DNA from: Pirellulales bacterium
Lineage (GTDB): Bacteria; Planctomycetota; Planctomycetia; Pirellulales; DATAWG01
Reading direction: 5' to 3'
Assembly: GCA_038210495.1 (NCBI GenBank)
Contig: JBBQWR010000007.1
Location: 1 to 64,000 of the forward strand
Length of the DNA: 64,000 nt
Part shown: positions 6,941-60,535 of the stretch, piece after piece
How positions within the stretch are numbered: the first letter of the stretch is position 1
Layout: the number at the start of each line of letters is the position of its first letter
The notes under the pieces: generated by a model
The model's database searches: none
The model's input: only the letters and a program-made list of their open reading frames with translations
Told to the model about the DNA's origin: nothing
Program-made: the position numbers and the translations under genes

Positions 6941-6952
6941 TGCCCCGTGGCG

Positions 6953-19737: not shown

Positions 19738-19746
19738 GGGGAAGTA

Positions 19747-19776: not shown

Positions 19777-19807
19777 TACATAGCTGCGGCATTCTGCCGC
19801 GTAGTCG

Positions 19808-19835
19808 AGCGGGGGGGCGTAAGCCCCCTGTCCCA
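19808..19835. repeat. REP-like element GAGCGGGGGGGCGTAAGCCCCCTGTCCC
   Basis: Variant of the 6953 family, located between korA and korB. Confidence 0.55.
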
Positions 19836-19857
19836 TCGGTCAACACTAATCAGACAC

Positions 19858-23409: not shown

Positions 23410-23429
23410 GGTTTTGCCTCTGGCAAAAA

Positions 23430-23554
23430 GTCGGGAGTCGGGAGACGGGAGTTGAAGCAGCCTCTGCGGCGCCAAGATTGGAGACAGCATAACTTGCGGC
23501 GTCGGGCCGGCGAAGCCGGCTTGTCTCACTCCCGACTCCCGACTCCCGTCTCCC
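23430..23554. repeat. Inverted pair of GTCGGGA-type heptamer arrays (23430-23452 and 23527-23554) forming a ~120-nt hairpin between two minus-strand genes
   Basis: gtcgggagtcgggagacgggagt ... actcccgactcccgactcccgtctcccc. The left arm is ~21 nt 5' of the enoyl-CoA hydratase ATG. The right arm overlaps the last codons of the 23526 gene. Confidence 0.6.
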
Positions 23555-23891
23555 CACTATTTCCGTCCGGCGCGGGTAGCTTCAGGTCCAAAATGGCCGT
23601 GCCGAGCAGCTTGCCTTGCGTGTCGATGCGTAGCGACTGACTGGCGCCGCCGCCGAGTGCGTTGTAGAGCACGAAATTCAGCGCCCAAATTTTCGGCAGC
23701 TCGAATCGCTCGACTCGATCGCCGCCGAGCCCGCAAAAGTATTCGGCGACTCTCTCGGATGTCAGCTCGCGCTGCAGGTAGGCAAACCCGGCCGGCGTGT
23801 ACGCTACGACGCCGATGTTCGCGTGGTTGCCCTTGTCGCCGCTGCGAGCATGAGCGATTTGGCCAAGGGTAATGGTAGCAGTATTGAACAT
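23526..23891 (-). CDS. Hypothetical protein, possibly DUF4387-like (AtuA-associated small protein family)
   Basis: Start chosen at MFNTATITL (ATG 23891). ARSGDKGNHANIGVVA ... FELPKIWALNFVLYNALGGGASQSLRIDTQGKLLGTAILDLKLP recalls DUF4387 proteins. Recall-based and weak. Confidence 0.4.
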   Translation of the reverse strand: MFNTATITLGQIAHARSGDKGNHANIGVVAYTPAGFAYLQRELTSERVAEYFCGLGGDRVERFELPKIWALNFVLYNALGGGASQSLRIDTQGKLLGTAILDLKLPAPDGNSGETGVGSRE

Positions 23892-25007: not shown

Positions 25008-25029
25008 GTGGCGGGTGGCGGGTGGCGAG
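25008..25029. repeat. Heptamer array GTGGCGG x2 + GTGGCGA, directly abutting the AKR start codon (sense strand TCGCCACCCGCCACCCGCCAC-G-ATG)
   Basis: Same heptamer family as the array at 58988-59051. Confidence 0.6.
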
Positions 25030-28200: not shown

Positions 28201-31200
28201 CAAAAACTCACGCTCAATGTGCTTGAGCGGACGGTCGTAGATGGCAAGGTCGGCGAGAAGCAGGTCGATACGTTTGAAGTGGCGACCGACGCCAAGGACG
28301 GAACGGCGCGTAAGACGCTCAAGCTCGAAAAGGGCGCCGAATATATCTTGCGAGCCGAAGGCATCGATCGGTTCAAGAACCCGGTGGTCGGCCAGTATCG
28401 GATCAAGATTTCCGATGAGAACGACAGCGTGCGGCTGCGCATCTTGGCCGATCGGCACACGTACAAAGTCGGTGACGCGGCCGACGTGCAACTGCACTGG
28501 CGCGAGAAGCCGGCCCTGGCGCTGGTCACGTTCCAAGGCGCGCGAGTGCTCGATTATCGGCTCGTGCAACTGGAGACCGGGGCGAACAAGCTGGCGATTC
28601 CCATGTCGGCCAAGCTCGCGCCGAATTTTGATCTCACGGTCGCGGTCATGACCGACGCCGGGCGACTGGAAAAGGGGCTAGGGGCAGGTGATGGGACTAG
28701 GGAGAAGAAGGCAGGCGGAAACGATGCAGTTAAGTTACCGGAGAGTCCGCTTAAGGTGGCGAAGGCGCCGGCGAAGCGATTTCATGAGGCTTCGAGTCCG
28801 TTCAGCGTCGAGCGGCAACTTACGCTGAAGCTTGAAACCAAGCGGAAGGAGGGGGCGAAGGGCGCCATTCGGCCGGGCGAAGAGGTGGAACTGGTCATCG
28901 TCGCCACCGATCCGCAAGGCAAGCCGGTCGCGGCCGAGGTCAGCCTTGGGATGGTCGAACAGGCGCTCTTGAATATGTTCCCGCCGAACGTGCCGGCGAT
29001 CGATGAATTTTTCAAAGGCGTGCCCCGGCAATCGGCGCTTCACACTTCGACCAGTGTCGTATTTGGCTATTTCCCCGCAACGCATCCGATCGATCGGCAT
29101 TTGCTTTCGGAGGTCCAGCGGCAAGAGATTGCGAAGGAGGAGGCGGAGAGCACGGCAGTGCGCACGCGCCTATTACTGCAGGCGCAACAACAGGCGGCGA
29201 ACCAATCCGATGCAACTCCCGCGCTCGTCATTCAAGAGGAAGCAGCAGAACAGTTGCTGGGCTCGGAACAGCCGAGAGCACAAGCCGGCGCTCTCTTTAC
29301 GGACGGAAGCACCGGGATTCAAGCCGGCGGGATCGCAGGCTCTGGCGGCCTTGGCAATGTTGACTTAGCTTTAGACGGGGTTCACGCCTATGGATGGACT
29401 GGCGACCAACATAACTCTGGCGAGGCGGCCGCCAATGAAGATCGAACTACCGCGGCCGTCGCTTACACGGATCAGGCGGCGATTCCCTTTCCGGTTAAGC
29501 CCGGAATTCAATATCCAACTCACGCTCAGGGGCGGACGTTGACGCGGGATCGCATGCGTTATAGTCAACTTCAAGTCGATCCAAGCGGCGGCGTCGGAGG
29601 CGGGGCTTCTGCCGGTGGATGGGCAGCAAATTCAAATAGGCCAGCAGCTTCGACGCCAATTGGCCGGACGCCTCAACTTGGGGCCGTCCCGCATATGAAT
29701 CGACTGTTCGACATGCCCCCGCAGCTTGGCCGAACGAGTGGCGAATTGGAATATGCGTTGAATGGCGGCGATTTGAGCGACAACTACGCCGTCGTTGCTC
29801 AAGACGGTAGCCAGCGGAATTGGTCGTTCGGCGCCAACTGGGCGCTTGGAGACGGCGGTCGCAAGGAATTGGCCGCCAAACGTGTCGCGGAATTGCAAAC
29901 GGCGATCGCCAATAAGGCGCTCGTCACGCCGCAGCGCGGGTTGGTCGAAACGGCTTATTGGAATCCGGCGATTGTCACCGACGACAAAGGCCGGGCGAGC
30001 GTCACGATCTCGATGCCCGATCAATCGACGGCCTGGAAGCTATCGGCCAAGGGAATCACGGCCGATACGCTGGCCGGCGAAGGGGAATTGGATCTGGTAG
30101 TGAAAAAGGACCTGTTCGGCGAATTGAAACTGCCGACGGCGTTCACCGACGGCGACGACGCCCAGATTCTCGCGACGATCCACAACGGCCTGTTGGACAA
30201 GGGTCAGATCGAGGTCACGCTCAAGACGACGATGGGCGGCAAGTCGACCGAGGAGAAAAAGACGATCGACGTCACGGCCACAGGGTTGTCCGAGTTGACG
30301 TTCCCGCTCGCCGTTCGCCGCCCGACCGCGGATGACAAGGCCGAGAAGAAGGTCGACGCCAAGAAAGAGGACAACCCGGCCGACGACAGCCAGGTGACGA
30401 TAGAGTTATCGGTCTCCTCGGGCGCCGAGCGCGACGTGGTTCGCCGCGTCGTGCCGATTCATCCTTACGGCATGTCGGTCTACGCGACGGCCGGCGGCGC
30501 CGCGTCCTCCGACACCACCGTGTGGGTCGAGGCGCCCAAGGACATGCCGCTGGCGGCCCCAAGCCTCCAGATTCTCGTCGGGCCGACGATTCAGCAGAGC
30601 CTCTTGGACGTGCTGTTTGGAACCGCGCCAACCTGTGAGATTGATGTGCTCCGGTCTGCCTCGGCGCTGGATTCGCCGGCCAGCGATCTGATGGCCGCGC
30701 TGGCTCTGCAAAAGCTGATCAATACGACCCGCGACGCTGGCAACCCGCAAGCCCGGTTGCTCGACGATCGGGTCCGCTCGGCAATCAGCCTGCTTGTCTC
30801 ATCGCAACTGGACGATGGCAGTTGGAGTTGGGGCGGCCAAGGCCTTCAAGCACAGGCCGCTCAAGGTCATCGCCTGGGGACGGCCCGCGTGATTTGGGCG
30901 CTTTCGCTGGCCAAATCGGCCGGCTACAAACTGCCCGGCGAGCAGTTCGAGAAGGGGCTGACGTTCCTGCAAAGCCAAATCGCGACCACTGCCGAGACCG
31001 ACTACGAAACCAAGGCCGTGCTCTTGCACGCCCTGGCCGCGGCGGGGCGCGGTGACTTCACGCTGGCCAATCGGCTGTATCGCAATCGCCCGGCGCTCAC
31101 GACCGCCGCGCTCGTGTATCTCTCGCTGGCGCTAGCGGAGATGGACCACCAGCCGATGGCCGAGGATCTTTTGAAACTGCTCGATCAGCGGAATTTGGAT

Positions 31201-33912
31201 GACGAAGACGCCACGGGCAAGCTCGGCTCGCTCGCTTGGAGCCGATCGTCGGCCGAGATTCGGTCTCTCTATGCGCTGGCGCTGGAACAAGTGCTGGCCG
31301 ATAGCCCCAAGCTCAAACTGCAAGTCGATTGGCTGATGACCCATCGCACGGGCCATCGCTGGTCGCCCGACAAAGCCACCGGGCCGGCCACGCTCGCGCT
31401 CGCCCGCTGGTTCGCCAAGACCCAGTTCGACGACGAGCATTACAAGCTGACCGTCACGGTCAACGACGTGGAAGTGAAGACGCTTGACATCGACAAGAAT
31501 TCGGGCGGTCTGGTCGTCGATGTGCCCGCCCACGCGCTAGTCGCCGGCAAGCAGCGGATTCACTTCGGGCTCATCGGCCGCGGCCGATATACGTTCCAAG
31601 CGATTCTGAGCGGCTTCGTGGATGCCGACAAACTGAAGGGCACGATGCAAGGAGTCGTCGTCAACCGGTACTATGAGCCGGCCCCGATCGAGCTCGACGG
31701 CAAGGAAATTCCTCGTGGATTCGGCGTCCTGCAAGGCTCGTACACGTCGTTCCGCAATCCGCTCACGCAACTGGCCGTCGGCAAGCGGGGACATGTCGAA
31801 CTCCAGATCGATCGCCCGTACGAACCGACGATGCGAGAAGAATACTGGGTCGTTACCGAGCCCCTGCCCAGCGGAGTAACCGTGATCGAAAACTCGATCA
31901 GCGGCAATTTCGAGCGGTTCGAGCTCGGCGCCGGCGCGATCACCTTCTATCTCCGGTCGTCGACGACATCGAGCCGGATTCACTTCGACGTCCACGGCTA
32001 TCTGCCGGGCCAATATCGCGCGGCGCCCACCGTGGTCCGCGACGCCTATCGGCTCGACAAGATGGTCGTGGCCGCCGCGACAAAACTGACCGTGCTGGCC
32101 CTCAACGCCAAGAGCGCCGACGCCTATCGCCTCACGCCGCAGGAATTGTATGAGCTGGGCAAGCGATACTTCGAGAAGGCGGATTACAAAGCGGCCGGAG
32201 AGCATCTCACCGAGCTAATGGCCAAGTGGAACATCCAGCCGGAGGTGTACAAGGAAACGGCCCGGATGCTCTTGGACATCCACTTGCAAACCGGCCCGCC
32301 GGCGCAGGTCGTGCATTACTTCGAGATCATCAAGGAGAAGTGGCCGGAGCTCGAATTCCCGTTCGAGAAAATCGTCAAGGTGGCGACCGCTTATCACGAG
32401 ATGGGCGAGTACGAGCGGAGCTACCTGGTCTTCCGCGCCACGGCCGAGAGCAGTTTTCTGCGCGAAGCGGCCGTCGGCGGGTTCTTGGAATCGCAGGGTG
32501 AATTTCTGCGGAGCATCGCGTTCATGAACCGGCTGCTGGCCGAATATCCCCCCGAGCCGTATGTGGTGGCGGCGACGTTCGCCCTCTCGCAGCGGGTCTA
32601 TGGCATGGCGCCCAAGGCGGCCGATGACCCAAAACTCCGCGAGAAGAAGATCAACAAGGTCGATCTGATCGGGCAGGCCGTCGCTATGCTCGATAATTTT
32701 CTGTCCGATTACCCCGACGACCCGGCCGCCGATCAGGCCTCGTTCTCGCTAGCCAATGCCCTGTTGGAACTTAAGTCGTACAAGGAAGTGATCGCCCGGG
32801 CGACCAAATTCGCCGCCCGGTATCCCAAGAGCGATTATCTCGATAGTTTCTGGTACATCGTGGCCTACGGTCATTTCGCCTTGGGGGAGCATGAGCAGGC
32901 CCTGACGATGGCCAAGAAGGTGGCCGAGGCCAAGCGGATCGATAAATTATCGGGCCGCGAGACCGAAAGCCCCAACAAATGGGAAGCGATCTACATCATG
33001 GGCCAGGTGTACCACAGCCTGGGGAAGGCGGCCGAGGCGATCGTCGAATATACGCGAGTCGCCGATCGGTTCGCCGACGCGAAGGAGGCCATCGCCTATT
33101 TCACGCGCAAGGAAATCACATTGCCCGAAGTGACGGTGATCCGCCCGGCTGACGCTGCCGAGGTGGAACTCAAATTCCGCAATGTCGCCACCGCCGACGT
33201 GAAACTGTACCGAATCGACCTGATGAAGTTCGGCCTGCTGAAGCGTAATCTGGCCGGGATCACGCAGATCAATCTGGCGGGGATTCGACCGTTCTTCGAG
33301 AGCAAGCTCGAGCTCGGCGATGGGAAGGATTTCCGCGACCGCACGCACAAGATCGCGCTGCCGATCAAGGAAGAAGGCGCCTATCTGATCGTCTGCCGCG
33401 GCGGCGATCTATATGCCAGCGGGCTGGTGCTGCTCAGCCCGCTGTCAGTCGAAGTGCAAGAAGACGCCTCGGCCGGGCAGGTGCGCGTCACGGTGAAGAA
33501 CGTGCTCAAGGACACCTACATCTCGGACGTCCAGGCCAAGGTGATCGGCAGCCGGAACGAGGACTTCGTGTCCGGCGAAACGGATCTCCGCGGCGTGTTC
33601 GTGGCCCAAGGGGTGCGCGGCGCGAGCACGGTGATCGCCCAAGCGGACAGCGGGCGTTATGCGTTCTTCCGCGGCAAGACCGAGCTTGGCCCACCGGAAC
33701 CGGCCGCATCGCCGCCGGCTCCGGCCAAGCAGTCCGAACAAACCGACAATCAGATGGAAAAGCCCCAGCAAGGCGAGAATCGCCGGGGCGACAATGGCCT
33801 GCTCGACAATCTGCAACGGGGCAACAACTCGTTGCAAGACTTCAACAACGACAAGCTGCAGAATTTCTATAAGCAGAACAAGAGTGGCGTGAAGGCGAAG
33901 GAGGCGTATTGA
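25249..33912 (+). CDS. Giant secreted TPR / alpha-2-macroglobulin / TPR fusion protein (2887 aa)
   Basis: Signal peptide. N-terminal TPR repeats (YbgF-like), then MG-type beta-sandwich repeats, then an A2M/TED-like region (LVSSQLDDGSWSWGGQG alpha-alpha toroid motif) and receptor-binding-like domain (cf. the 1..619 fragment). A second TPR block and a C-terminal beta-rich domain follow. No obvious CxEQ thioester motif was seen. Low-complexity Gln/Ala/Gly insert at ~29150-29800. Confidence 0.8.
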   Translation: MKRMFSVAAAVLSITVGLGVTLRLVGADAKEAPAPPETKKPAAAADGGLFAVPHVPTKISELLADHKYADAIAAIDAARKDAKAKDAPWDYLAYLKGRALHLDGQYDAAVKQFTAMEKEFPGSPWARRARFGKAVSLARKGDFRAAELIYRTEVEYLLSSARKQEIADLYLEFADAYFKPKDEIQHKPDYQKALEFYLKALEVGPQNDRRAEIELQTARSYQLLNQLPEAAKRFSQFIKDHPGLPAVIEARFRLGEVQLAQSQQQEARRTWQDLLAAHADSKSERIPEAAYRLAFTYNLPNPQTDEELSLGISTLESFIKNYPDHKLASQAHLLIANSYIARGRYEDAVKSLIRFLADKRYADREEVADARNLLGRSYQLQRKFTAALEAWRDYLTKHPSHHAWSDVQREIVNTEYLMADDKAQAKQYDEARKLWNDFLAKYPLDPRDPQILYLFGWMNYQQERFPEANSDWRRLASKYPGTEPAQRGQLMIAATLEGKLGKLEEALQEYKKVQPGNCQNLAQMAINRLTAKSMAIVTERVFRSDETPKIKLTSRNIESVTVRAYKVDLETYFRKMHVVQGVEGLDIALIDPDKTFEFKIPKYNEYQQVENEIELPLFKDIAKDAANADAKDAGKLTPSGAWAVTVSSKTLEATTLVLQSDLDLIVKSSRDELFVFAENMRTGKPWPGVKLLLSNGQQVFGEVACGADGVLKQSFKELKGAGDVRVFALADGGVASNVVSLQGVGVAQGLVDKGYIYTDRPAYRAGQIVHVRGILRRAVDDNYTVEKGKKETVEVYDPRSRLIWQEETKLSDVGSLHMYFTLPATSPVGPYRVVVHDDEGHSHAGGFTVHEYQIDPVRLSVDIDRHVFYRGEEIEGTIRAAFYYGAPLADREVTYKLADGRVNSAKTDDKGEVHFKLPTRDFRETQTLPLVVTLAERNLTTVQNFFLATQGFAISMSTVRPVYVAGETFEVTLKAMDAENKPLAQKLTLNVLERTVVDGKVGEKQVDTFEVATDAKDGTARKTLKLEKGAEYILRAEGIDRFKNPVVGQYRIKISDENDSVRLRILADRHTYKVGDAADVQLHWREKPALALVTFQGARVLDYRLVQLETGANKLAIPMSAKLAPNFDLTVAVMTDAGRLEKGLGAGDGTREKKAGGNDAVKLPESPLKVAKAPAKRFHEASSPFSVERQLTLKLETKRKEGAKGAIRPGEEVELVIVATDPQGKPVAAEVSLGMVEQALLNMFPPNVPAIDEFFKGVPRQSALHTSTSVVFGYFPATHPIDRHLLSEVQRQEIAKEEAESTAVRTRLLLQAQQQAANQSDATPALVIQEEAAEQLLGSEQPRAQAGALFTDGSTGIQAGGIAGSGGLGNVDLALDGVHAYGWTGDQHNSGEAAANEDRTTAAVAYTDQAAIPFPVKPGIQYPTHAQGRTLTRDRMRYSQLQVDPSGGVGGGASAGGWAANSNRPAASTPIGRTPQLGAVPHMNRLFDMPPQLGRTSGELEYALNGGDLSDNYAVVAQDGSQRNWSFGANWALGDGGRKELAAKRVAELQTAIANKALVTPQRGLVETAYWNPAIVTDDKGRASVTISMPDQSTAWKLSAKGITADTLAGEGELDLVVKKDLFGELKLPTAFTDGDDAQILATIHNGLLDKGQIEVTLKTTMGGKSTEEKKTIDVTATGLSELTFPLAVRRPTADDKAEKKVDAKKEDNPADDSQVTIELSVSSGAERDVVRRVVPIHPYGMSVYATAGGAASSDTTVWVEAPKDMPLAAPSLQILVGPTIQQSLLDVLFGTAPTCEIDVLRSASALDSPASDLMAALALQKLINTTRDAGNPQARLLDDRVRSAISLLVSSQLDDGSWSWGGQGLQAQAAQGHRLGTARVIWALSLAKSAGYKLPGEQFEKGLTFLQSQIATTAETDYETKAVLLHALAAAGRGDFTLANRLYRNRPALTTAALVYLSLALAEMDHQPMAEDLLKLLDQRNLDDEDATGKLGSLAWSRSSAEIRSLYALALEQVLADSPKLKLQVDWLMTHRTGHRWSPDKATGPATLALARWFAKTQFDDEHYKLTVTVNDVEVKTLDIDKNSGGLVVDVPAHALVAGKQRIHFGLIGRGRYTFQAILSGFVDADKLKGTMQGVVVNRYYEPAPIELDGKEIPRGFGVLQGSYTSFRNPLTQLAVGKRGHVELQIDRPYEPTMREEYWVVTEPLPSGVTVIENSISGNFERFELGAGAITFYLRSSTTSSRIHFDVHGYLPGQYRAAPTVVRDAYRLDKMVVAAATKLTVLALNAKSADAYRLTPQELYELGKRYFEKADYKAAGEHLTELMAKWNIQPEVYKETARMLLDIHLQTGPPAQVVHYFEIIKEKWPELEFPFEKIVKVATAYHEMGEYERSYLVFRATAESSFLREAAVGGFLESQGEFLRSIAFMNRLLAEYPPEPYVVAATFALSQRVYGMAPKAADDPKLREKKINKVDLIGQAVAMLDNFLSDYPDDPAADQASFSLANALLELKSYKEVIARATKFAARYPKSDYLDSFWYIVAYGHFALGEHEQALTMAKKVAEAKRIDKLSGRETESPNKWEAIYIMGQVYHSLGKAAEAIVEYTRVADRFADAKEAIAYFTRKEITLPEVTVIRPADAAEVELKFRNVATADVKLYRIDLMKFGLLKRNLAGITQINLAGIRPFFESKLELGDGKDFRDRTHKIALPIKEEGAYLIVCRGGDLYASGLVLLSPLSVEVQEDASAGQVRVTVKNVLKDTYISDVQAKVIGSRNEDFVSGETDLRGVFVAQGVRGASTVIAQADSGRYAFFRGKTELGPPEPAASPPAPAKQSEQTDNQMEKPQQGENRRGDNGLLDNLQRGNNSLQDFNNDKLQNFYKQNKSGVKAKEAY

Positions 33913-34184: not shown

Positions 34185-35072
34185 TCACGCACCCGCTTTG
34201 CGAAAGTTCAGCAGCGGCCACAGTTGGCCTTCCCGCCGCGCGTAGAGAATCGACACTAACTCGCCTTGGGCGTCGATGGCCGCAAGTTGTGCGCTGTCGT
34301 TCGTTCCGAAAGGCGATCCGAACGGCAAACCGTGGATGACGAGTTCGACCTCCACATCACTTAGCGCGAGCGTCGGCAGCGAGTCGAGCGCCGCGCGGGG
34401 CGAAAGGATGCGACTCGGCAATGTCTCGGCGTTTAGCGTCCGCGGATCGCAGGCGTCCGCCACATGGAATGGCCCGATCGCCGTGCGCTGCAGAGCCGAC
34501 ATCACTGCCGCGGTTCCCAGCGACTCGGCAAGGTCGCGACCGATCGACCGCACGTACGTGCCCGAACTGCATGCGATCTGGAGCGTCAGTTCCGGATAAT
34601 CGTAGCTCTCGATCCATAGCTTATGCACCGTGATGGCCCGCGACTGCAATTCGACGTCGCGGCCCTTTCTCGCCAGCTCGTACGCTCGACGGCCGGCGAC
34701 TTTGATCGCCGAAAAGATCGGTGGCCGCTGCTGAATCTCGCCGATCATGGCCGCGGCGGCGTGCTGTATCTCGTCGAGCGTTGGGATCGGCGGATCGATC
34801 AGCTCGGTGATCTCGCGCTCGATGTCCTCCGACTCGCTCGAACGTCCGAGCAAGAATACGCCGCGATAGCGCTTCGGCATCCGCTGCACATATTCGACCA
34901 ATCGCGTCGCCGGGCCAAGGCATGCAATCAGGACTCCCGAGGCGATCGGATCGAGGGTGCCAGCATGTCCGATCTTCGCCGGCTTGACAAGATGTTTGAT
35001 CCGCCCGAGCACGGCTGCCGACGACAACCCGACGGGCTTATTGAGATTCAGAAGGCCGAACATGGGGGGCAA
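34185..35072 (-). CDS. truB: tRNA pseudouridine(55) synthase TruB
   Basis: FGLLNLNKPVGLSSAAVLGRIKHL...HAGTLDPIASGVLIACLG is the TruB catalytic Asp motif region. Confidence 0.9.
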   Translation of the reverse strand: MPPMFGLLNLNKPVGLSSAAVLGRIKHLVKPAKIGHAGTLDPIASGVLIACLGPATRLVEYVQRMPKRYRGVFLLGRSSESEDIEREITELIDPPIPTLDEIQHAAAAMIGEIQQRPPIFSAIKVAGRRAYELARKGRDVELQSRAITVHKLWIESYDYPELTLQIACSSGTYVRSIGRDLAESLGTAAVMSALQRTAIGPFHVADACDPRTLNAETLPSRILSPRAALDSLPTLALSDVEVELVIHGLPFGSPFGTNDSAQLAAIDAQGELVSILYARREGQLWPLLNFRKAGA

Positions 35073-35285
35073 ATGACTAATGACGAATGTCTAATCAATG
35101 ACGAATGACGAAGCTCGAATGACGAAGGACTGAGATCACGTTTTTGCAGTAATGCTTAGGTCGACTAATTTTCTCGACATCACAAACGTGCTCGAAGATT
35201 CGACATCAGACCTTCGTCATTCGTCAATTAAGCATTAGTCATTGATTAGACATTGGGTATTTCGTCATTCGTCATTCCTCATCAA
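35071..35285. repeat. Intergenic TGACGAA/TTCGTCA heptamer and TTAGACAT repeat block, related to 5141-5300
   Basis: aatgacgaatgtctaatcaatgacgaatgacgaag ... cttcgtcattcgtcaattaagcattagtcattgattagacattg ... ttcgtcattcgtcattcc; it shares a 30-nt near-identical segment with the 5141-5300 block. Confidence 0.6.
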
Positions 35286-40658: not shown

Positions 40659-40704
40659 ACTTAATCAACTTATTCTTTCGCCCGTCCTAACCGCGCGCCG
40701 CGGT

Positions 40705-40730
40705 GAGCGAGGCGCGTAAGCTCCCTGTCC
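40705..40730. repeat. Degenerate REP-like element GAGCGAGGCGCGTAAGCTCCCTGTCC
   Basis: Shares the GCGTAAGCTCCCTGTCC core with 6953-6980. Confidence 0.45.
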
Positions 40731-42284: not shown

Positions 42285-44242
42285 CGGCTCTTTCGTATGC
42301 CGGTGCCTCAATAGCCCGACCATGCTCCGTTTCCACTTCCCGCTCATCGAACCGGACAGGCGGATTTCCCGCATCCGGCTCTCGGACAAGGTTATCATGC
42401 GTTCGCCCACGGAAGGTTGGGTTTCAGCCGGCTGAGCCGTACCAGGCCCAGTTCGTTGTGCAGGTATTCGGCCGGAAATCGCCGATACTTCTGCTCCTGC
42501 ACTTTGTGCTTGCGACACAACCACTGGCGCAGCCGACGCGCGACATGCTGATCGATGGCTCGATACGCAGCGCCCGCCGGCTCAAGACAGAAGTAAGTCG
42601 CCCAGCCAACCAACTTGCGGTTGAGTCGACGAGTCATCTCCTTGGCGTCTTGGAGGGTGGTGTTGGAAGCGGTCATCTCGCTGGTCTCGCGACAGAGTCG
42701 CTGGACTTTCTTTCGCGACGGTTTCGTGCCCAGATAGGCGCGACCCGTGCGCGGCGAGTAGCACCGCCCCAACGTATAGCCCAGAAAGTCGAAGTCCTCT
42801 TCGGGCAGTCGGCAAACGTGCGTCTTCGTCTCGTTGACCGTCAGCTTGAGCGTCTGCATCATGTTCCGCATGGCGGACATCGCCGCATCGGCGCTGCCGC
42901 GGCAGCAGATCACGAAGTCATCCGCGTAGTTGACGATCCGAGCGCGAAACCGCCGCTCGTGTCCCAACGTCTTCCAGCCCAGCACGAATCGACGCATGTA
43001 GAGATTGCTGAGCAGCGGCGAGATCGGGGCGCCTTGCGGGCTGCCACGACCCGTGTCCTTGTTGCGAGTCGTTCGTTGCAGATTGCCCCGCGCGTCCGTC
43101 TCTTCCACCGGCGCTTCGAGCCACATCTTAACTAGATGCAGCACCTGCTTGTCGCTTACGCGACGCGCCACCGATGTCATCAACTCCGCGTGGGGAATGC
43201 TGTCGAAGTATCCGCTTAGGTCCGCGTCCACAACCTCCGTATGCCCCGTGCTTAGCAGCCGATGGACCTCCTGTACGGCGTCCAACGCGCTGCGTCCGGG
43301 CCGGTAGGCGTATTGCTCCGGCTGCAAGTCGGTCTCGAAGATCGGTTCGAGAACCAGCAAGGCAGCCATTTGCACGACACGATCCTTGATCGTGGGAATA
43401 CCCAACGGTCGTTGTTTGCCGTCCGGCTTGGGAATGTACACCCGCCGGACTGCCTGGGGTCGGTACGTCTTCGTCCTGAGTTCCTCCGCTAGTTCGTCCA
43501 ACCAGCGCTGCACGCCGTAGGCTTCGATGTCCGCGAACGTCTGTCGATCGACTCCCGGAGCGCCTCCGTTGAGGAGGCAGCGGCGGTGAGCCGTCCACAG
43601 CACATCCTGACGATACACCTTGTCGTACAGCGCATAGAAACGATAGTTGGGCGATTCCTTCGCTTTGGCATGCAACGCTTCCTGGAGCTTCTGAACCGTA
43701 GGTAGAGTTGGTAGGCTCATCGCCAATCTTGCCATTGCTGGCTTACGGTCCCGCGCCACTTCCGGCGTTGGCCTTGAACTGAGGTCCCTTCGCTCCGCCG
43801 GAGTTACCCGGCTTCCTCGCTACTACGGACCTCTCCGTCACCCCACGCGGCCCGGCTCTGTCCCTCGCGGGCTGCCAGTTGACGGTCACGCGCCGTCACC
43901 GCTGGGGCTTCCCGTGTTGCGTCAAGTTTCCTTATGCAGACATGCCGCCGCCAATACCCCGGTGGGATCGCTGAGGTGTTTCGCTCGACTCATATCCTCT
44001 CAGCGACAGCGGCCTTCCCCGTCCCTTTGACAGGTCGGCTCCCACATTACCCGTTTCGAGGCCTACGCGGCGTTCACTCACGTTGCGGCCTGCCTGCTCG
44101 CGGAGTTGCCCAAGGCAACCCTTTACACCGAAGGCTCCGGCGGCTTCGTTACCTCCACCGCCGCTCCGATTGCTACCGGCCGGAGCGAAACCTTGCCGGG
44201 CGGGAATTGCACCCGCTGAAAACTCACGCCTTTCACGGCGCA
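42285..44242 (-). mobile_element. Bacterial group II intron (full-length, ~1.95 kb) with an intron-encoded RT/maturase; the 3' boundary is approximate (+/-30 nt)
   Basis: The minus-strand 5' end GUGCGCC lies at plus 44236-44242. ~480 nt of domains I-III precede the ORF. Domain V-like GAGCCGGAUGCGGGAAAUCCGCCUGUCCGGUUC (plus 42349-42381) with an AGC triad lies 13 nt after the ORF stop. A domain VI region follows. Confidence 0.75.
42395..43759 (-). CDS. Group II intron reverse transcriptase/maturase (intron-encoded protein)
   Basis: RT domains 0-7 ([15 protein letters not shown] in [10 protein letters not shown]), X/maturase domain ([19 protein letters not shown]) and a C-terminal D/En-like region. 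Confidence 0.9.
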
Positions 44243-48741: not shown

Positions 48742-49321
48742 GACGATCGCCGGAATTGGTCGAAGGTGCGCGAGTTCGCTTTTGCGGCTCGATGGAGAAT
48801 GCCCGCAAATCGGCGGGATAGTACCGAAATGCACGTTTCACGGCAAGAGAGGCGACCTGGAAATGACCGGTTGCCAAATGCCAAGTCGCACGCTGCATGA
48901 CACGGTCGGCGAGGTTAACAAAAGGGGGGAGTAAATTTGGCCCGTTGGGCAGCGGCGAGAGGCGGGCCTGGAGCCGCGAAGCGGCGCCACATAGCCGCGG
49001 CAGCCTGCTGCGGAGTACATGGATGGCCAGTAAGCTGTCGCTGCCCAATGGATTACGATAGCGGGAGATTTGAAGTCGCCCATAGCGAAACCTCTGCTCT
49101 GCGGTAGCCGCTCGGTACTCCGCAGCAGGATGCCGCGGATATGGGGCCGAGCCTTCGGCTTGGCCGGAACGTTCGCGTCTCGTCGATTTACCGACCCTTG
49201 AAGGCCGATCCGTCTCCGTGGTAAGGTTGAGGGATTTTACTGGCCGCCGGAGGGCGCAGGGGGCGGGACAACAGGCGAACGGAAATGCTGACGGAAACAC
49301 GGTCTTAGCTAAGGATTCATC

Positions 49322-52603: not shown

Positions 52604-52775
52604 GGAGGGGGGCTAGGGGACCGCTGCGCGACGGCTCCGCCGTAGGGGTTAGGGGCAAGGGAAGGAAACGAAGATGCTCGCAGTACGGCCCACGCTCGAT
52701 CTTTTCCTTCCCCGCGGCTCCGCATCTTGTCCTCTCTCTAGTCCCTAACCCCACCACTCCTAGCCCCTTTGCCTT

Positions 52776-55063: not shown

Positions 55064-56452
55064 GTGGCTGGAAAAGCTTGGTCAGGAGTTTTTAACGAGG
55101 CGACGGACCGCCGAGTGGAGCAGTTTACCGAAAGCATTAGCTTCGACCGGCGACTGTATGCGCACGACATCCAAGGTTCGATCGCCCACGCCCGAATGCT
55201 GGCCTCGGTCAGCCTGCTGACGGCCGACGAATGCCAGCAAATTGAGCAGGGACTGTGTGAAATCCGCCAGCTAATTGAGCAAGGCGATTTTAAGTTCACG
55301 ATCGAGTTGGAAGACATTCACCTGCACATCGAGCGGGCGCTGATTGAGCGGCTGGGCGATGTCGGACGAAAGCTCCACACGGCCCGCAGTCGCAACGATC
55401 AAGTCGCGACCGATCTTCGCCTTTGGCAGCGCGAGGCGATCGACCAGCTCGACCAGCGGCTGATCGCGCTTCAACAAGCATTTGTGGGCCGCGCGGACCA
55501 AGACGAAGGCTGCATCCTGCCGGGCTACACGCACCTCCAGCGCGCCCAGCCGGTTCTAGCGGCGCACTATTGGCTTGCGTATTGCGAAAAACTGGAGCGC
55601 GATCGGCAAAGGTTGGCCGACTGCCGGCGACGAACGAATGTGTTGCCGTTGGGGTCGGCGGCGCTGGCTGGTACTTCGCTGCCGATCGACCGGGATTTTG
55701 TCGCGCGGGAGCTCGGATTCGATTCGGTCGCGGCCAACAGTCTGGATGCCACAAGCGACCGCGATTTCGTGCTCGAGTTTGCGTTCGCGCTAAGTCAGAT
55801 CGCCGTGCATCTGAGTGGCTGGGCAGAGGAGTGGATTCTGTGGTCGACCGCGGAATTCAATTTCCTGAAACTGCCGGAGGCGTTTTGCACGGGGTCGTCG
55901 ATCATGCCTCAAAAAGTCAATCCCGACGTGCTGGAACTCACGCGTGGCAAGACGGCTCGGGTGATCGGCAATTTGCAGGCCCTGCTGGTGCTCGTGAAGG
56001 GTTTGCCGCTGGCCTACAACCGAGATTTGCAGGAAGACAAGCAGCGGGTGTTCGATTCGTTCGACACGGTGGCCGCCTGTTTGGAATTGGCCGCGCCGCT
56101 TGTGGCCGAGACAAAGCTGAATCGAACGGCCATCACCGAGCGATTGGACCGCGGCTATTTGGACGCGACGACGTTGATGGAAGAGTTTATTCGCCGCGGG
56201 GTTCCGCAGCGCACGGCCCACGAGCTTGTCGGCCGGCTAGTCCGGAAAGCCATGGATCGCGGAGTTCGATTGTCGGATTTGGCGGCTAGCGAGTTTCACG
56301 AAGCTCATCCGCTGTTAGACGGCAGCTTCGAGGACTCACTGGGCGTCGAACGGGCGATCGCGCGGTTTGTCAGCTATGGCTCGACGGCCCCGTCGGAAGT
56401 GCGGCGACAGGTCGAGCAGTGGAGAAAACGGCTGGGAAAGCGTGAAGCGTGA
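55064..56452 (+). CDS. argH: Argininosuccinate lyase
   Basis: Proposed GTG start at 55064: (V)[34 protein letters not shown] aligns with the E. coli ArgH N-terminus [45 protein letters not shown] and [12 protein letters not shown] are fumarate-lyase signatures. The ORF-track start at 54683 would overlap mutL by 73 nt. Confidence 0.85.
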
Positions 56453-56500
56453 AGCGTGAAGCGTGAAGCGTGAAGCGTGGGGCGTGGGGCGTGGGGCGTG
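56440..56500. repeat. Heptanucleotide tandem array: GTGAAGC x5 then GTGGGGC x3; contains the argH stop codon and lies ~50 nt upstream of the next gene
   Basis: gcgtgaagcgtgaagcgtgaagcgtgaagcgtgaagcgtggggcgtggggcgtggggcgtg, read directly from the sequence. Confidence 0.85.
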
Positions 56501-56550
56501 AAAAAGGCGGGTGTTCGGCGAAGACGGCTGGCGCAAGAGGGGATGCAATT

Positions 56551-58911
56551 ATGAATCGCAACATACAGACGGGGCCTATGTTTAATTACCATTGGTTTGG
56601 TATTTGCGCGATTTCGGTCGGCGCCTTTTCGATGGCGAGCTTCGTCGTGGGACAGGAGCCGCCGGAGAAGAAGATGGCCGAAAAGAAAGCGGCGGGACCG
56701 GCTGGTCCTGTCGCGGCGCCACCGACGGCGCCCGCGGCTAAAGCTCCAGGCGCCAAAGCTGTCGCTGAGGCGCCCCCGTCGCCGGTGTTTAATCCCGAAA
56801 GCCCGGCGGTCGAAAATATCCTGGCGGCCAAGCCGAAGTCGCCCCGGGATGTGATGCAGGCCGTGATTTCGCTTGGCCAACTGGATCGACCGGATTTGGC
56901 CAAGCAAATGCTCGATCAACTGTTGGCCGCGAAGCTAGACGCCGCGGCCCTCGCCGACCTCAATCATCAGTTCGGCAGCGCGACGTTCATCCAGATGCTG
57001 ACCAGCGCGCCCTTGGCGCCGCAAGGACGCCAGTTAGCCGACGTGGTATTCGCCGCCGGCGCCGCCGAAAGCCGAAATCCCGAGCGGCTCGCTCTGCAGA
57101 TCAAGCAGCTCAGCGACCCGTCGTCCGATGTTCAGGCGAGCGCGCTGGAGGCACTGGCCGGCGGCGGATCGTATGCGGCCGCCGCGCTGTTTGCGGCTCT
57201 CGCAAGTCCCACGCCGCCGGCCAGAGCGGCGCTCGCCCGTCGGGCCTTGATCGAAATCGGGGACGACGCCGTGCGACCGCTCTTGGCGGCTCTCGAAGCC
57301 CGCGACGCTGCGACTCAGCTCAAGGCTCTCGATGGGCTGTCCGAACTCGACGTACCGACCGACGCGGTTCCGTACCTATTGGCTTGCGCCTTCTCGGGGA
57401 CCAGTTCCGAAGAAGTCCGGCAAGCCGCCACGCGCGTGTTGGCCAAAGCTTATCGAGGAACCCCGACGAAGTCCGACGCGGCGATCATCCTCTCGCGGGC
57501 GGCCCGCGAGTTCTTGGAGCACGATCATCCGCTCATCGCCGACGAAGGCGACAAAGTCTCTCTATGGCGGTGGGACGCCGTCGGCCATCGGCCGGTGATG
57601 GAGGCCTATCCGCCGCGGCAGGCCAGCACGGTGATCGCGGCCAAGCTCGCGAGCGGGTTGCAGCAAGTCGCCCCCGACGCTGCCGCTCGAGGGCAATTGT
57701 ATTTGATCAGTCTGCTTGAATCCGGAGTGGTTCGCGCGGGCCTCGACGCGCCGCTGCCCACCGGCGCCGGTAGCGAATTTGAATTGGCCGCGAAAATGGG
57801 AGTCGAGGCGGTCAACGACGCGCTCGCCCAGGCGATGGCCACCGGTCATCCGGCTGCGGCTCGGGGGGCCGCGGACGTGTTGGCCGCGATCGGCGATGCA
57901 AAATTGCTGACCCGCGACGGCGCCAGCGTCAGCCCCCTGGTCGAAGCTCTGCGCCAACCAGATCGCCGGCTGCGGATGGCGGCTACCGCGGCGATCATGA
58001 AGTTCAAGCCCTCTGCGCCATTCCCGGGCGCGTCGCTATTGACGGATTCGGTGGCCGACATGGCTCGCTCGACGGGCAAGCGCGGCGCCGCCATCGCGTT
58101 CTCCTCGATCGAGCCCCTTCAAACGCTGGCCGGCATGACCAATGCCCTCGGCTACGAGACGATGACGGCAACCAGCGGACGGCAGCTTGTGGCAGCGGCC
58201 TCGCAGGCGGCCGATACTGAGGTGATCTTAGTCAGCGGGCGAATCGATCATTCGCCCGCGTTCGACACGGTTCAGGCGCTACTCCGAGACCCGCGCACGG
58301 CGGATGCTCCGATTTGCGTCATGGCCGAACTCGATCAAATCGAGTGGCTGGGTCAGAAATACGAAGGCTTTCCGCATGTGTTCGTCGAACTGCGGCCGAT
58401 CTCGCTCGATCAGATGAAGCGGATAATTCTCAAGGCCACGGACCTTGCCGGCGATCGAATTCCGCCGGCGAACGTGCGGGCGCAGCATGTCGTTCAGGCG
58501 CTCGAATGGCTGGCTCAGTTGGCCGAGGCGCCGCCGGCGGTAGCCGATGCGCGGCGATACGAACCGATCGCCGAACGCGCGCTCTTTCGTCCGGCGACGA
58601 CCATCGCGGCGGCAAAAGTCATGACCCGACTCGGGACGCCGTCATCGCAATTGTCACTGGTGGACCTGGCCAGCGTCGCGACACAGCCGATCGAGTCGCG
58701 GCAGATCGCGGCCACGGCGTTTCGCGACAGCGTCCGCCACTTCGGTTTGCGGCTGAGTCCATCGGAAATTCTCCGCCAGTATCAACGTTACAACGAAAGC
58801 GCGCAGCTCGATGCGGCGACGCAAAAGGTTTTGTCCCATGTGTTGGATACGCTCGAACTGTCGGCGAAAAAGCAAGCGGCGAACGTAAGCCGTCCGCCGC
58901 GCGCGCCGTGA
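56551..58911 (+). CDS. Secreted HEAT/ARM-repeat protein (hypothetical, 787 aa)
   Basis: Start at MNRNIQTGPMFNYHWFGICAISVGAFSMASFVVGQE (signal-peptide-like) with a GAGGGGA purine tract upstream. Ala/Pro-rich linker, then alpha-helical repeat architecture (repeated ...ALEAL.../...AAIGDAKLL... units). Confidence 0.6.
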   Translation: MNRNIQTGPMFNYHWFGICAISVGAFSMASFVVGQEPPEKKMAEKKAAGPAGPVAAPPTAPAAKAPGAKAVAEAPPSPVFNPESPAVENILAAKPKSPRDVMQAVISLGQLDRPDLAKQMLDQLLAAKLDAAALADLNHQFGSATFIQMLTSAPLAPQGRQLADVVFAAGAAESRNPERLALQIKQLSDPSSDVQASALEALAGGGSYAAAALFAALASPTPPARAALARRALIEIGDDAVRPLLAALEARDAATQLKALDGLSELDVPTDAVPYLLACAFSGTSSEEVRQAATRVLAKAYRGTPTKSDAAIILSRAAREFLEHDHPLIADEGDKVSLWRWDAVGHRPVMEAYPPRQASTVIAAKLASGLQQVAPDAAARGQLYLISLLESGVVRAGLDAPLPTGAGSEFELAAKMGVEAVNDALAQAMATGHPAAARGAADVLAAIGDAKLLTRDGASVSPLVEALRQPDRRLRMAATAAIMKFKPSAPFPGASLLTDSVADMARSTGKRGAAIAFSSIEPLQTLAGMTNALGYETMTATSGRQLVAAASQAADTEVILVSGRIDHSPAFDTVQALLRDPRTADAPICVMAELDQIEWLGQKYEGFPHVFVELRPISLDQMKRIILKATDLAGDRIPPANVRAQHVVQALEWLAQLAEAPPAVADARRYEPIAERALFRPATTIAAAKVMTRLGTPSSQLSLVDLASVATQPIESRQIAATAFRDSVRHFGLRLSPSEILRQYQRYNESAQLDAATQKVLSHVLDTLELSAKKQAANVSRPPRAP

Positions 58912-58952
58912 GGAATGCGACCCATGTACGTCGATCGTAGTGCTCGCGGTTA

Positions 58953-58980
58953 GGACAGGGGGCGAACTCCCCCGCTCGCC
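58953..58980. repeat. REP-like variant GGACAGGGGGCGAACTCCCCCGCTCGCC
   Basis: Reverse-orientation relative of the 6953 family. Lies 42 nt after the stop of the 56551 gene. Confidence 0.5.
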
Positions 58981-58987
58981 TTTATTG

Positions 58988-59051
58988 CTCGCCACCCGCC
59001 ACCCGCCACCCGCCACTCGCCACTCGCCACTCGCCACTCGCCACTCGCCAC
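58988..59051. repeat. Heptanucleotide tandem array: GCCACCC x3 then GCCACTC x5 (+ GCCACCT); ends 10 nt before the sigma-54 activator start codon
   Basis: ctcgccacccgccacccgccacccgccactcgccactcgccactcgccactcgccactcgccacct. Its reverse complement reads (GTGGCGA)5(GTGGCGG)3, giving the same 5+3 organisation as the array at 56440-56500. Confidence 0.85.
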
Positions 59052-59061
59052 CTGCCCCTGA

Positions 59062-60129
59062 ATGTCCCACTCCTTTCGACCTTTGGAAGCCAACGCCAGT
59101 GGGCCGCCGATCAAGGGGATCATCGGCTCCGGGCCGGCGATGACCGATGTCTATCGGATCACGCGGCAAGTGGCTCGGTCGAATGCGTCGGTCCTCCTGC
59201 TGGGCGAGACGGGCACCGGCAAGGAGCTGATCGCCAAGGCCATTCATCAGCTGAGTGCCCGCGGCACCGGCCCGTTTGTGCGCGTTAACTGCGGCGCCCT
59301 GACCGAAAGCCTGCTCGAAAGCGAGCTGTTCGGCCATGTCCGCGGCGCGTTCACCGGCGCCATCGCCAATCGGACCGGCCGATTCGAGGCCGCCCATACC
59401 GGCACGATCTTTTTGGACGAGATCAATTCGACGACGCCGAAGCTACAGGTCAAGCTACTGCGAGTTTTGCAGGAGCGCGAGTTCGAGCGCGTCGGCGACA
59501 CGCAGACCGTGCGGGTCGATACGCGCGTCGTGGCGGCAAGTAACCGGGATTTGCTCGAAGAGGTCGAAAAGGAGACCTTTCGCGAGGACCTGTACTATCG
59601 TCTCAACGTCGTGCCGATTCATCTGCCGCCGCTGCGGATGCGGCGTGAGGACATTCCCGAATTGGTCGGACATTTTCTCAATATCAGCAACGAGGAAAAC
59701 GATCGTTACGTCGTGCATATCGAACGCAAGGCAATCGAAGCGTTGCAGGACTACCATTGGCCGGGCAATGTCCGCGAGCTGCAAAATTACGTCGAGCGGG
59801 CCGTCGTCATGGCCAATGGCGACGAACTGAACTGCGAGCTACTGCCCCCGGCGGTGATGGGCGATAGCCGCCCCCGAAGCGGCAAGTTCAAGGCCGTCGA
59901 TCTCGATACGCTCACCGGCGAGCTCGTGCATCAGGGCCTCGCGACCGCCGGTCCGCAGGAAGACGCCCTGTATACGAAGATCGTCAACAAGGTCGAGCGG
60001 GAGCTGATCGCCCAGGTGATGGCGGCGTGCGACAACGTGCAGACGAAAGCGGCGAGCCGTCTGGGAATCAATCGCAATACGCTGCACAAGAAGCTGAAGG
60101 AGCACGGCTTGGAAGAAGGCGCCGACTAG
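59062..60129 (+). CDS. Sigma-54-dependent transcriptional activator (AAA+ sigma-54 interaction domain plus Fis-type HTH, no receiver/sensor domain)
   Basis: [18 protein letters not shown] Walker A, the GAFTGA motif ([17 protein letters not shown]), Walker [18 protein letters not shown], and the C-terminal [27 protein letters not shown]. Only ~25 aa precede the AAA+ core. Confidence 0.85.
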
Positions 60130-60200
60130 AGTCGCGCACGAAGTAAGCGCGGGGCGCCAACTCGCGCAACGTCGCTCGCGCTTACTTCGTGCGCGGCTCT
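60129..60200. terminator. Hairpin of the GCGCACGAAGTAAGCGCGG family (second copy), shared by convergent genes; both stop codons lie at or in the arms
   Basis: gagtcgcgcacgaagtaagcgcgg ... cgcgcttacttcgtgcgcggctct, same arm sequence as 3474-3556. Confidence 0.55.
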
Positions 60201-60535
60201 ATCGACCACTCGCAGCAGTCGTCGATCGCGCAGATGTCTTCGCACCGCGTCTCATGACTGTCGCGATCGAGGTGCGTGGACCCACTGTGCTCGCTGCCGA
60301 CGTACTTGGCCTTCGACCTACTGTTGTCGGATGTCTTGTGCGTATAGTGCATTCCCGGGGTGGTCGATTTCTCGGTCATCGTCCATCGCGCATGGCTCGT
60401 GTTCGACCGACCGGCGCGGGTCAGAGCCGAGGCGCTGTTTCCAGCCGGGCCCTTTGCCTGAGCGGCCGCGCCAAGCATGGCTGTGAGAGCCAGCGTCAGG
60501 CCGCCCACTATCAATTTGTGTGTTGCAGCGTTCAT
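60182..60535 (-). CDS. Small secreted Ser/Thr/His-rich protein with a Cys-rich C-terminus (hypothetical)
   Basis: Signal peptide MNAATHKLIVGGLTLALTAMLGAAAQA. C-terminal CEDICAIDDCCEW. Confidence 0.4.
   Translation of the reverse strand: MNAATHKLIVGGLTLALTAMLGAAAQAKGPAGNSASALTRAGRSNTSHARWTMTEKSTTPGMHYTHKTSDNSRSKAKYVGSEHSGSTHLDRDSHETRCEDICAIDDCCEWSIEPRTK

Follow-up and report, generated by a model that had tools for sequence, protein, structure and literature searches.

Two heptanucleotide arrays around a HEAT-repeat gene are probably independent members of a repeat population in a Pirellulales genome

We analysed a stretch of 64,000 nucleotides from a Pirellulales bacterium (GenBank assembly GCA_038210495.1, contig JBBQWR010000007.1, positions 1 to 64,000 of the forward strand; the whole stretch is called the window below), in which two tandem arrays of 7-nt units lie on either side of a gene for a protein with HEAT repeats. 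The host is a member of the Planctomycetia, order Pirellulales. In its nearest species representatives the HEAT protein is 31–35% identical, and the closest proteins, at 46–56% identity, come from Pirellulales metagenome-assembled genomes. The locus consists of three genes that together span 55070–60129. The gene upstream of array 1 is argH, encoding argininosuccinate lyase (Pfam Lyase_1 and ASL_C2). The gene between the arrays, at 56551–58911, is identified by its HEAT_2 repeats (Pfam); homologues of its product are named ‘CheY-like’ by JGI (the Joint Genome Institute). The gene downstream of array 2, at 59062–60129 on the plus strand, encodes a sigma-54 activator of 355 residues with an AAA+ domain (Pfam Sigma54_activat, E = 1e-70) and an HTH_8 domain; it is short and lacks an N-terminal sensor domain. 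The preliminary description of this DNA had named the same three genes and had placed the arrays beside them, with the argH stop codon inside array 1 and array 2 ending 10 nt before an ATG. The sequence, Tandem Repeats Finder (TRF) and Pfam bear this out.

Array 1 occupies 56438–56502 on the plus strand, with a period of 7, 9.3 copies and 93% matches according to TRF and the sequence. It is composed of (GTGAAGC)5 at 56442–56476 and (GTGGGGC)3 at 56477–56497, followed by a partial GTGAA, and forms a G-skewed arm, on the sense strand, at the stop side of argH. The argH stop codon (TGA at 56450–56452, +) falls within its second unit, and the array encodes the final ArgH codons K-R-E-A-stop and carries TGA stops in all three sense frames. 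Because every unit holds a TGA, so that the stop returns in each frame, ArgH is insensitive to the number of units: the protein has 460 residues with the tail ...GKREA*, and this is unchanged at any number of A-type (GTGAAGC) units that is at least three. The reading frame of the HEAT gene begins 48 nt past the array, at an ATG on which an independent Logan gene call agrees. The sequence context of array 1 has a fold z of −2.0 relative to shuffles. Tandem dimers of GTGRRGC are strongly over-represented in the window, with 7 matches against 0.45 expected, and none of 100 shuffles reaches 7.

Array 2 occupies 58988–59051, with a period of 7, 9.1 copies and 96% matches, again according to TRF and the sequence. 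Its plus-strand sequence is CT(CGCCACC)3(CGCCACT)5CGCCAC, and its minus-strand sequence is (GTGGCGA)5(GTGGCGG)3(GTGGCGA)1, that is, 5+3+1 units. It is a C-skewed arm on the start side of the sigma-54 activator gene, whose ATG at 59062 is separated from the end of the array at 59051 by a gap of 10 nt, CTGCCCCTGA, in which there is no Shine-Dalgarno-like sequence. A TGA stands directly before this ATG (TGA and ATG at 59059–59064, +; from sequence, Pfam and frame analysis). In all sense frames array 2 contains neither a start nor a stop codon, and its context is less stably folded than shuffled sequence (z = +1.7). Directly upstream of the array there is a hairpin like those of repetitive extragenic palindromic (REP) elements, GGACAGGGGGC-GAAC-TCCCCCGCTCGCC, with the T-rich tail CTTTATTG (58950–58986, +; found in a repeat search, with a terminator-like site at 58960–58977). 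This has the appearance of a terminator for the HEAT gene. The GCTCGCC at the tail of the hairpin at 58950–58986 resembles the array 2 unit CTCGCCA, which hints that this tail may have been the seed of array 2.

The preliminary description had suggested searching for further copies of the two units and comparing their positions with those of start codons. Within the 64-kb window, this search finds GTGRRGC at one locus only, 56442–56497, and GTGGCGR at three, beside gene ends. For GTGGCGR there are 11 tandem dimers against 0.28 expected, and 0 of 100 shuffles reach 11; the three loci are at 626, 25008 and 58988. At 626–642 (+), GTGGCGA is repeated 2.4 times, forming a G-skewed stop-side arm 7 nt past a stop codon. 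At 25008–25027, on the minus strand, the sense-strand sequence is CTCGCCACCCGCCACCCGCCAC and the array ends 1 nt before an ATG at 25006. On its sense strand this array matches the first 22 nt of array 2 exactly, and both arrays are preceded by an AT-rich box, which for array 2 is TTTATTG at 58981–58987. Downstream of the divergent region that holds this array there is an open reading frame (ORF) at 25249–33912 (+), encoding 2888 residues.

A census of arrays called by TRF covered 172.7 kb, comprising the window and five related Pirellulales loci (L005 and L007–L010). The 64-kb window contains nine exact runs of period 7 and none of periods 4–6 or 8–13, and TRF identifies ten period-7 arrays in it besides arrays 1 and 2. 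Over the 172.7 kb, period 7 is the commonest TRF period, with 34 rows; periods 6 and 8 have 7 and 5 rows, respectively. These arrays are concentrated at the ends of genes: 26 of the 34 lie no more than 20 nt from a gene end, at a median of 4 nt, in a sample where bases this close to a gene end make up ~6% of the total (binomial p = 3e-25). The genes that adjoin them are many and unrelated.

The arrays also obey a strand rule, according to which the sense strand is G-skewed and purine-rich at or just past stops and C-skewed just before starts. This is true of 27 of the 30 boundary arrays (p = 8e-6), or of 21 out of 24 once paired arms and one duplicate row are collapsed (p = 3e-4), and arrays 1 and 2 both conform. 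Stop-side arrays often provide the stop codon themselves (...gaagcg TGA, ...gggag TGA, ...gacgaa TGA, ...ggggt TAG). Start-side arrays extend to 0–19 nt from the ATG, and no Shine-Dalgarno-like sequence is found between them and their start codons. Most of the sister arrays have no G-tracts (there are none in AATGACG, GTGAAGC, TGAAAGT, AAGTACG or ACTGACA). Because many different heptamers obey this placement, the strand rule is a property of the class, rather than of one motif or of a quadruplex.

Many of the arrays occur as inverted pairs of a single unit that enclose a whole intergenic spacer. The partner arms lie 20–150 nt apart, and as RNA the paired loci form long stems, with z from −3.8 to −8.1 compared with shuffles. 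The units GGGAGTC and ACTCCCG close a spacer at 23429–23558 (−; fold z = −4.2), where (GGGAGTC)n ends in the upstream stop codon at 23526–23528 and a gap of 19 nt separates (ACTCCCG)n from the next ATG. A degenerate pair of AATGACG and CGTCATT at 35072–35282 (−; z = −8.1) fills the spacer from the stop codon at 35282–35284 to 8 nt before the next ATG. It is homologous to a palindrome at 5145–5266 (+; z = −4.2), with which it has the order of variant units in common; here the AATGACG arm lies over the stop codon at 5187–5189, followed by an 18-nt loop and the CGTCATT arm. A second degenerate pair, at 52643–52775 (+; z = −3.8), consists of TAGGGGT-type units, past a stop codon at 52603, and an arm of TAGTCCC/TAACCCC/TAGCCCC units that abuts the GTG start of mutL at 52776. 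Further inverted pairs are present in relatives, at 13481–13594 in L008, at 1453–1594 in L010 and in the spacer between the HEAT and sigma-54 activator genes in L005 and L008. Single arms are found as well: (ACTCCCG)4.4 at 19746–19776 (−) ends about 10 nt before an ATG and has a REP-like hairpin upstream, at 19805–19835. No inverted partner of 56438–56502 or of 58988–59051 is present within 600 nt. The two arrays are thus single arms, array 1 on the stop side and array 2 on the start side; they lie in different spacers, have no partners, and are not partners of each other.

The order argH, HEAT gene, sigma-54 activator is kept in the five related loci. Such conservation of the trio across Pirellulales relatives suggests that the HEAT protein and the activator may act together. 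Logan look-ups of the activator and of the gene at 18721–19737 gave no exact product. The relatives' loci carry period-7 arrays too. At the end of argH there is (TGAAAGT)2.4 in L007 and (GCGAGGG)4 in L009, and no array is present at the argH–HEAT boundary of L008. The spacer between the HEAT and activator genes is closed by GGGRCTN and its reverse complement in L005 and L008 and by a degenerate palindrome in L007, and contains no array in L009 or L010. The preliminary description had taken the HEAT gene to be bracketed by the two arrays. That they bracket it as a unit is not supported: each array belongs to its own spacer, and the orthologous boundaries carry other heptamers or none.

One difference in copy number was seen between assemblies. 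The Logan unitig L004 (run SRR19962015), which encodes a HEAT protein 100% identical to that of the window, carries four copies of GTGGGGC in array 1, one more than the window. The unitigs L004, L011, L014 and L015, which come from two runs and the same organism, are 100% identical to the window elsewhere over 14.6 kb, and the three or four GTGGGGC units are the sole difference in the 14.6 kb compared. The array at 25008 is the same in L011, and the degenerate arrays at 52.6 kb are the same in L014 and L015. We note that the unitigs were built with k = 31 and stop inside perfect arrays, including both 35-nt blocks (56443/56467, 59019 and 23525; L004, L011 and L014), as graphs of this k should at perfect repeats of 35 nt. 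The figure of five units per long block is accordingly that of the window's assembly. When the exact 22-nt flank of array 1 was compared with metagenomes, it gave only two chance matches, in unrelated sequence (L012 and L013).

It is probable, in our view, that arrays 1 and 2 belong, independently of each other, to a population of heptanucleotide simple sequence repeats (SSRs) that extends across this Pirellulales genome and its relatives. Such arrays would arise and change in length by replication slippage, in steps of 7 nt, and blocks of variant units such as 5+3 would form once a mutated unit itself amplifies. Selection would then filter the orientation of the arrays. Beside start codons only the C-rich strand would be tolerated, because it contains no GTG, ATG or TTG starts, no stops and little structure, and the purine-rich orientation, which carries TGA, TAG or TAA, would be tolerated at and past stops. 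Array 1 would provide the C-terminus of ArgH and stops in three frames, and array 2 would give the sigma-54 activator gene a leader that is open, C-rich and free of a Shine-Dalgarno sequence. A change in copy number would probably have at most a graded and modest effect on expression, and would not act as a switch.

On this explanation the likeness between the two arrays requires no special cause. They had been described as having the same 5+3 structure in inverted orientation, and a shared generative mechanism or selection had been suggested. The 5+3 structure holds for array 1 in the window, but array 2 is 5+3+1, and array 1 of L004 has a G-block of four units. Both units begin with GTG, that of array 2 on the other strand, but the arrays are not reverse complements. 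The shared 5+3 pattern is best read as a coincidence, because it depends on the register chosen (array 2 being 5+3+1) and varies between assemblies; we estimate the chance that two arrays of about 8–9 units with two block types have an equal split as roughly 1 in 4 to 1 in 7. What can be kept of the shared mechanism is that both are slippage-type repeats that arise in a common way, with a unit-level difference seen in array 1.

Several points weigh against independent members produced by slippage. The census sample is only 172.7 kb, the gene starts of the window are our own calls (from ORFs and codon-position GC, refined by eye), and the single copy-number difference could be an assembly discrepancy. 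The order of internal variants is common to 19739–19769 and 23422–23452, and likewise to 5145–5173 and 35079–35107. Units of the AATGACG type (AATGAYG; reverse complement TTCGTCA/TTCGACA) are found at non-orthologous boundaries in several genera, namely at 5153–5266 and 35072–35282 in the window, 16483–16506 in L005, 19735–19765 in L009 and 6665–6694 in L010, and as AATGATG in L001/L002, and GTGGCGR units recur at three unrelated loci of the window. Local slippage alone would not lead one to expect such recurrence of units across loci and genera, which is a sign that arrays are copied from locus to locus or that their sequence is under selection. Moreover, the arms at the spacer between the HEAT and activator genes stay complementary in L005, L008 and L007 despite their differing sequences. 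Complementarity that is kept through such turnover of sequence is therefore a hint of selection for the stem, in other words of function.

For these reasons, that is, because units recur across genera and the complementarity of arms persists, we give a small but appreciable probability to a role at the level of RNA, either in coupling or as leaders. The arrays would then be functional RNA elements, and the C-rich arrays on the start side would serve as leaders without structure, in place of a Shine-Dalgarno site, for example as landing sites for ribosomal protein S1 or for proteins of the cold-shock type, which can bind at one protein per 7 nt. Where a G-rich arm lies in or just past the upstream gene, the two arms would make a stem that hides the downstream start until translation or termination upstream opens it, giving translational coupling; or the stem would be a hairpin for the stabilisation or processing of mRNA. 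Arrays 1 and 2 would be single-arm versions of such elements. This would fit the way in which stems enclose spacers, with a stop codon in or beside the 5' arm and an ATG 0–19 nt past the 3' arm, and the retention of this architecture, with different sequences, at the spacer between the HEAT and activator genes in L005, L008 and L007. It would also fit the lack of a Shine-Dalgarno-like sequence between arrays and start codons and the unusually unstructured context of array 2, with its z of +1.7. Comparable proposals exist for the TAACTGA repeats, where the candidates named are S1, Csp and CsrA (PMC4679880), and for the heptamers of Nostoc recF and recO (bioRxiv 10.1101/2022.06.06.494920). However, arrays are gained and lost among relatives (none between the HEAT and activator genes in L009 and L010, and none between argH and the HEAT gene in L008), arrays 1 and 2 have no partners, and the experimental effects in Nostoc and Xanthomonas are small or undetected.

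A more general proposal, which we regard as improbable, is that the inverted heptamer arrays of Pirellulales are an operon device, with the G-rich arm in or at the upstream stop codon and the C-rich arm reaching to the next start, in which the stem hides a start region that lacks a Shine-Dalgarno sequence until a ribosome that completes the upstream gene melts it. If this were true, translation would be coupled across spacers of 50–200 nt, and slippage, by resizing the arms, would allow the strength of the coupling to evolve. The uncoupled state would be represented by single arms, among them arrays 1 and 2, with an always-open leader for the sigma-54 activator. Either a binder acting in trans or some mechanism of copying would then account for the preference for certain units, such as the AATGACG type, across genera.

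Returning to the arrays as DNA, we consider it very unlikely that they act through non-B structures, with GTGGGGC forming a G-quadruplex past argH and array 2 forming a quadruplex on the opposite strand or an i-motif, so as to affect transcription or termination in the way proposed for GGGAATC repeats. The canonical motif G3+N1-7 x4 arises at four GTGGGGC units, as in the L004 allele, and the G-rich strand is placed as it is in Xanthomonas and Nostoc. The allele in the window, however, has three such units and no canonical motif (at least four G3+ tracts, with loops of 1–7 nt), the opposite strand of array 2 has only three GGG tracts, and many arrays of the same class are wholly without G-tracts. 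We rejected the G-quadruplex as a general explanation because most sister arrays lack such tracts.

The preliminary description had proposed the arrays as candidates for slipped-strand phase variation or for the tuning of a promoter spacer; the gain or loss of units would then switch or tune the expression of the HEAT gene or the activator gene. The arrays are indeed perfect and long, one difference in unit number separates the assemblies, and a regulator gene lies directly downstream of array 2. Nevertheless, we give this proposal very little credence. The length and tail of ArgH remain constant at different unit numbers, and neither array lies inside the HEAT or the activator reading frame. 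No sigma-70-like pair of −35 and −10 hexamers is present in 56200–59300, and an array of 64 nt is too long to serve as a 17-nt promoter spacer. Because ArgH is unchanged, the arrays are outside the frames and there are no promoter hexamers, both phase variation and promoter-spacer tuning are unsupported. In addition, no surface, antigen or restriction-modification genes lie beside arrays 1 and 2, whose flanks are argH, the HEAT gene and the sigma-54 activator, all of them housekeeping or regulatory; the class is found at many unrelated gene ends; and Rehm et al. were likewise negative for Xanthomonas and Nostoc (PMC4692102).

Some other candidates were set aside. A possible sigma-54 promoter in TGGCGC...TGCA upstream of the HEAT ATG was judged by eye to have the wrong spacing. 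Searching Rfam at the gathering score gave nothing at either array, and the sole match in the window was a group II intron at 44078–44218. CRISPR-like and telomere-like readings were dropped at sight, there being no spacers and the arrays being internal and 64 nt long. That arrays 1 and 2 are the arms of a single RNA or DNA cruciform or loop around the HEAT gene, with co-evolved 5+3 blocks, is scarcely credible and was rejected: an antiparallel register does set the five-unit A-block against the T-block and the three-unit G-block against the C-block, with a predicted duplex of −61.1 kcal/mol, but arrays of permuted units and equal composition give −66.6 ± 23.5 kcal/mol and are as good or better in 40% of cases, and the units are not complementary, agreeing in their cores at only 4–5 of 7 positions. 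A distance of 2.5 kb and a translated gene separate the two arrays, as against 20–150 nt between the arms of true pairs; the blocks of array 2 are 5+3+1, the G-block of array 1 has four units in the other assembly, and the orthologues have separate arrays or pairs in each spacer.

Heptanucleotide repeats of cyanobacteria are known as short tandemly repeated repetitive (STRR) sequences. Since these were described, it has been asked why many bacteria favour 7-nt repeats and what part such repeats play at the ends of genes. The tandem heptanucleotides of Calothrix PCC 7601 are cited in PMC4692102. In Nostoc recO, eight heptamers run into the start codon, and their deletion changed the expression of a reporter by no more than ~3-fold (bioRxiv 10.1101/2022.06.06.494920). 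The STRR sequences and the Nostoc recF and recO heptamers resemble the arrays described here, where GTGGCGR but not GTGRRGC recurs within the window, in that a few heptamer families are dispersed over many loci, and the eight units that reach the recO start codon may be compared with the nine units of array 2, which end 10 nt before an ATG. They differ in their units, in their phylum and in coming from AT-rich genomes, and no systematic pairing of stop-side and start-side arrays is described there.

According to literature cited in PMC4692102, heptamers are over-represented among bacterial SSRs, for which polymerase slippage has been put forward as a hypothesis. The GGGAATC repeats of Xanthomonas and the GGGGAYT repeats of Nostoc PCC 7120 have an intergenic bias and vary between close species (Rehm et al., 2015; PMC4692102); they were not linked to the function of genes, and no regulatory role could be detected for them. 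Our arrays have much in common with these repeats: units of 7 nt, repeated 2 to 26 times and with variants grouped in blocks, a strong intergenic bias and nearness to gene ends, the absence of a link to gene function, and length and sequence that appear to vary between close relatives. Nearby inverted pairs are frequent too, with 70–75 cases in Xanthomonas. The differences are that many unit families occur here in one genome (GTGAAGC, GTGGCGR, AATGACG, GGGAGTC and TAGGGGT), that most of the units are unable to form G-quadruplexes, that the arrays abut stops and starts (median 4 nt) and often fill the spacer, and that the host is a planctomycete.

The TAACTGA repeats of marine Beggiatoaceae, cyanobacteria and Bacteroidetes lie a few nucleotides upstream of starts (MacGregor, 2015; PMC4679880). 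They often overlap the previous stop, have stop codons in every frame, and vary from strain to strain by indels of 7 nt. As in our arrays, they sit before starts in place of a recognisable ribosome-binding site, and some overlap the upstream stop; three-frame stops are also a feature of GTGAAGC in array 1, and the 7-nt steps by which close strains differ may have a counterpart in our one assembly difference. TAACTGA, however, is a single unit conserved across phyla, for which only one indirect repeat was reported, whereas the present arrays have many different units and commonly form inverted pairs, with start-side arms that are C-rich and free of stops.

The contingency loci of Haemophilus and Neisseria resemble our arrays in being perfect and slippage-prone tandem repeats, of which we saw one unit-number difference. 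Their units, however, are of 1–5 nt (occasionally 7) and belong to genes for surface or restriction-modification functions, where they are placed within the reading frame or between the −35 and −10 hexamers, whereas the 7-nt units here are outside the reading frames affected and adjoin housekeeping and regulator genes in a genome-wide pattern. REP elements and bacterial interspersed mosaic elements (BIMEs) offer a different comparison. The window has a dispersed family of hairpins, paired heptamer arrays are themselves extragenic palindromes, and in L009 a Y1 transposase flanked by hairpins lies between argH and the HEAT gene. Arrays 1 and 2, however, are non-palindromic and have no partners, and REPs are fixed units of 20–40 nt rather than variable tandem arrays. 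No gene for a REP-associated tyrosine transposase (RAYT) was identified in the window, where no systematic search for one was made. The L009 transposase (141 residues; PF01797) is found within 8605–10000 and has the same hairpin repeats, GCCCCGTTCACGGGGC and CCCGGCGTTTACGCCGGG, on both sides, as in a REP-associated transposase.

The REP-like hairpins of the window are intergenic, lie in both orientations and have the consensus GGCGAGCGGGGAGC-GTAA-GCTCCCTGTCC. Copies are present at 6949–6986, 15031–15068, 40695–40730, 19805–19848 and 58938–58980. Two of these adjoin heptamer arrays, at 19.7 kb and at array 2, and the copy at 6942 starts with GTGGCGAG, which is the unit of array 2. A second palindromic family, TAGAGCCGCGCACGAAGTAAGCGCG and its complement, forms hairpins at 3466–3493 / 3537–3564 and at 60127–60151 / 60177–60201; both sites are intergenic, and the latter (60127–60201) is just past the sigma-54 activator gene. 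A 30-nt inverted repeat, GGGTGCCACTGCTGGCTTGTCCAGCAGTG, is found at 673–702 / 733–762 with 93% complementarity and has a third copy at 7711–7740; an ATG at 724 would fall in the loop between its arms. Two further inverted repeats are intergenic, one of 34 nt and 97% at 13144–13177 / 13346–13379, with arms 168 nt apart, and one of 33 nt and 91% at 48986–49018 / 49115–49147, with arms 96 nt apart.

Tandem repeats of other lengths are found inside predicted coding regions. An 18-nt repeat, GTGGCGATGAGTCAACGG, which starts with the array 2 heptamer, is present in 4–5 copies at 4624–4713, and a 15-nt repeat, GAACGAACCGGCGCT, in 3.8 copies at 17350–17409. They are probably peptide repeats, because both lengths are multiples of 3. 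The group II intron match at 44078–44218 (−) covers domains D1–D4 (Rfam RF02003, 110.7 bits, E = 7e-24), and a minus-strand ORF next to it, at 42395–43759 (455 residues), could be the intron-encoded protein.

We found no report of heptamer arrays in Planctomycetes in the literature, and they are not treated in PMC4692102, PMC4679880, PMC4060949 or PMC6749651, two of which name the phylum, but in connection with other matters. The novelty here is the planctomycete phylum and the large number of unit families; slippage-prone heptamer arrays at gene boundaries were known already. There is a practical consequence for annotation, in that such arrays break short-read assemblies and should not be taken as phase-variation switches. 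They also mislead the calling of start codons, because ORFs run through the C-rich arrays. Studies of heptamer function have so far shown weak effects or none (PMC4692102; bioRxiv 10.1101/2022.06.06.494920). The present analysis extends the record to a GC-rich lineage of planctomycetes whose heptamers, many and different as they are, come under one rule of placement and strand, and the frequency of inverted pairs that reach from stop to start suggests a role at the level of RNA that can be tested.

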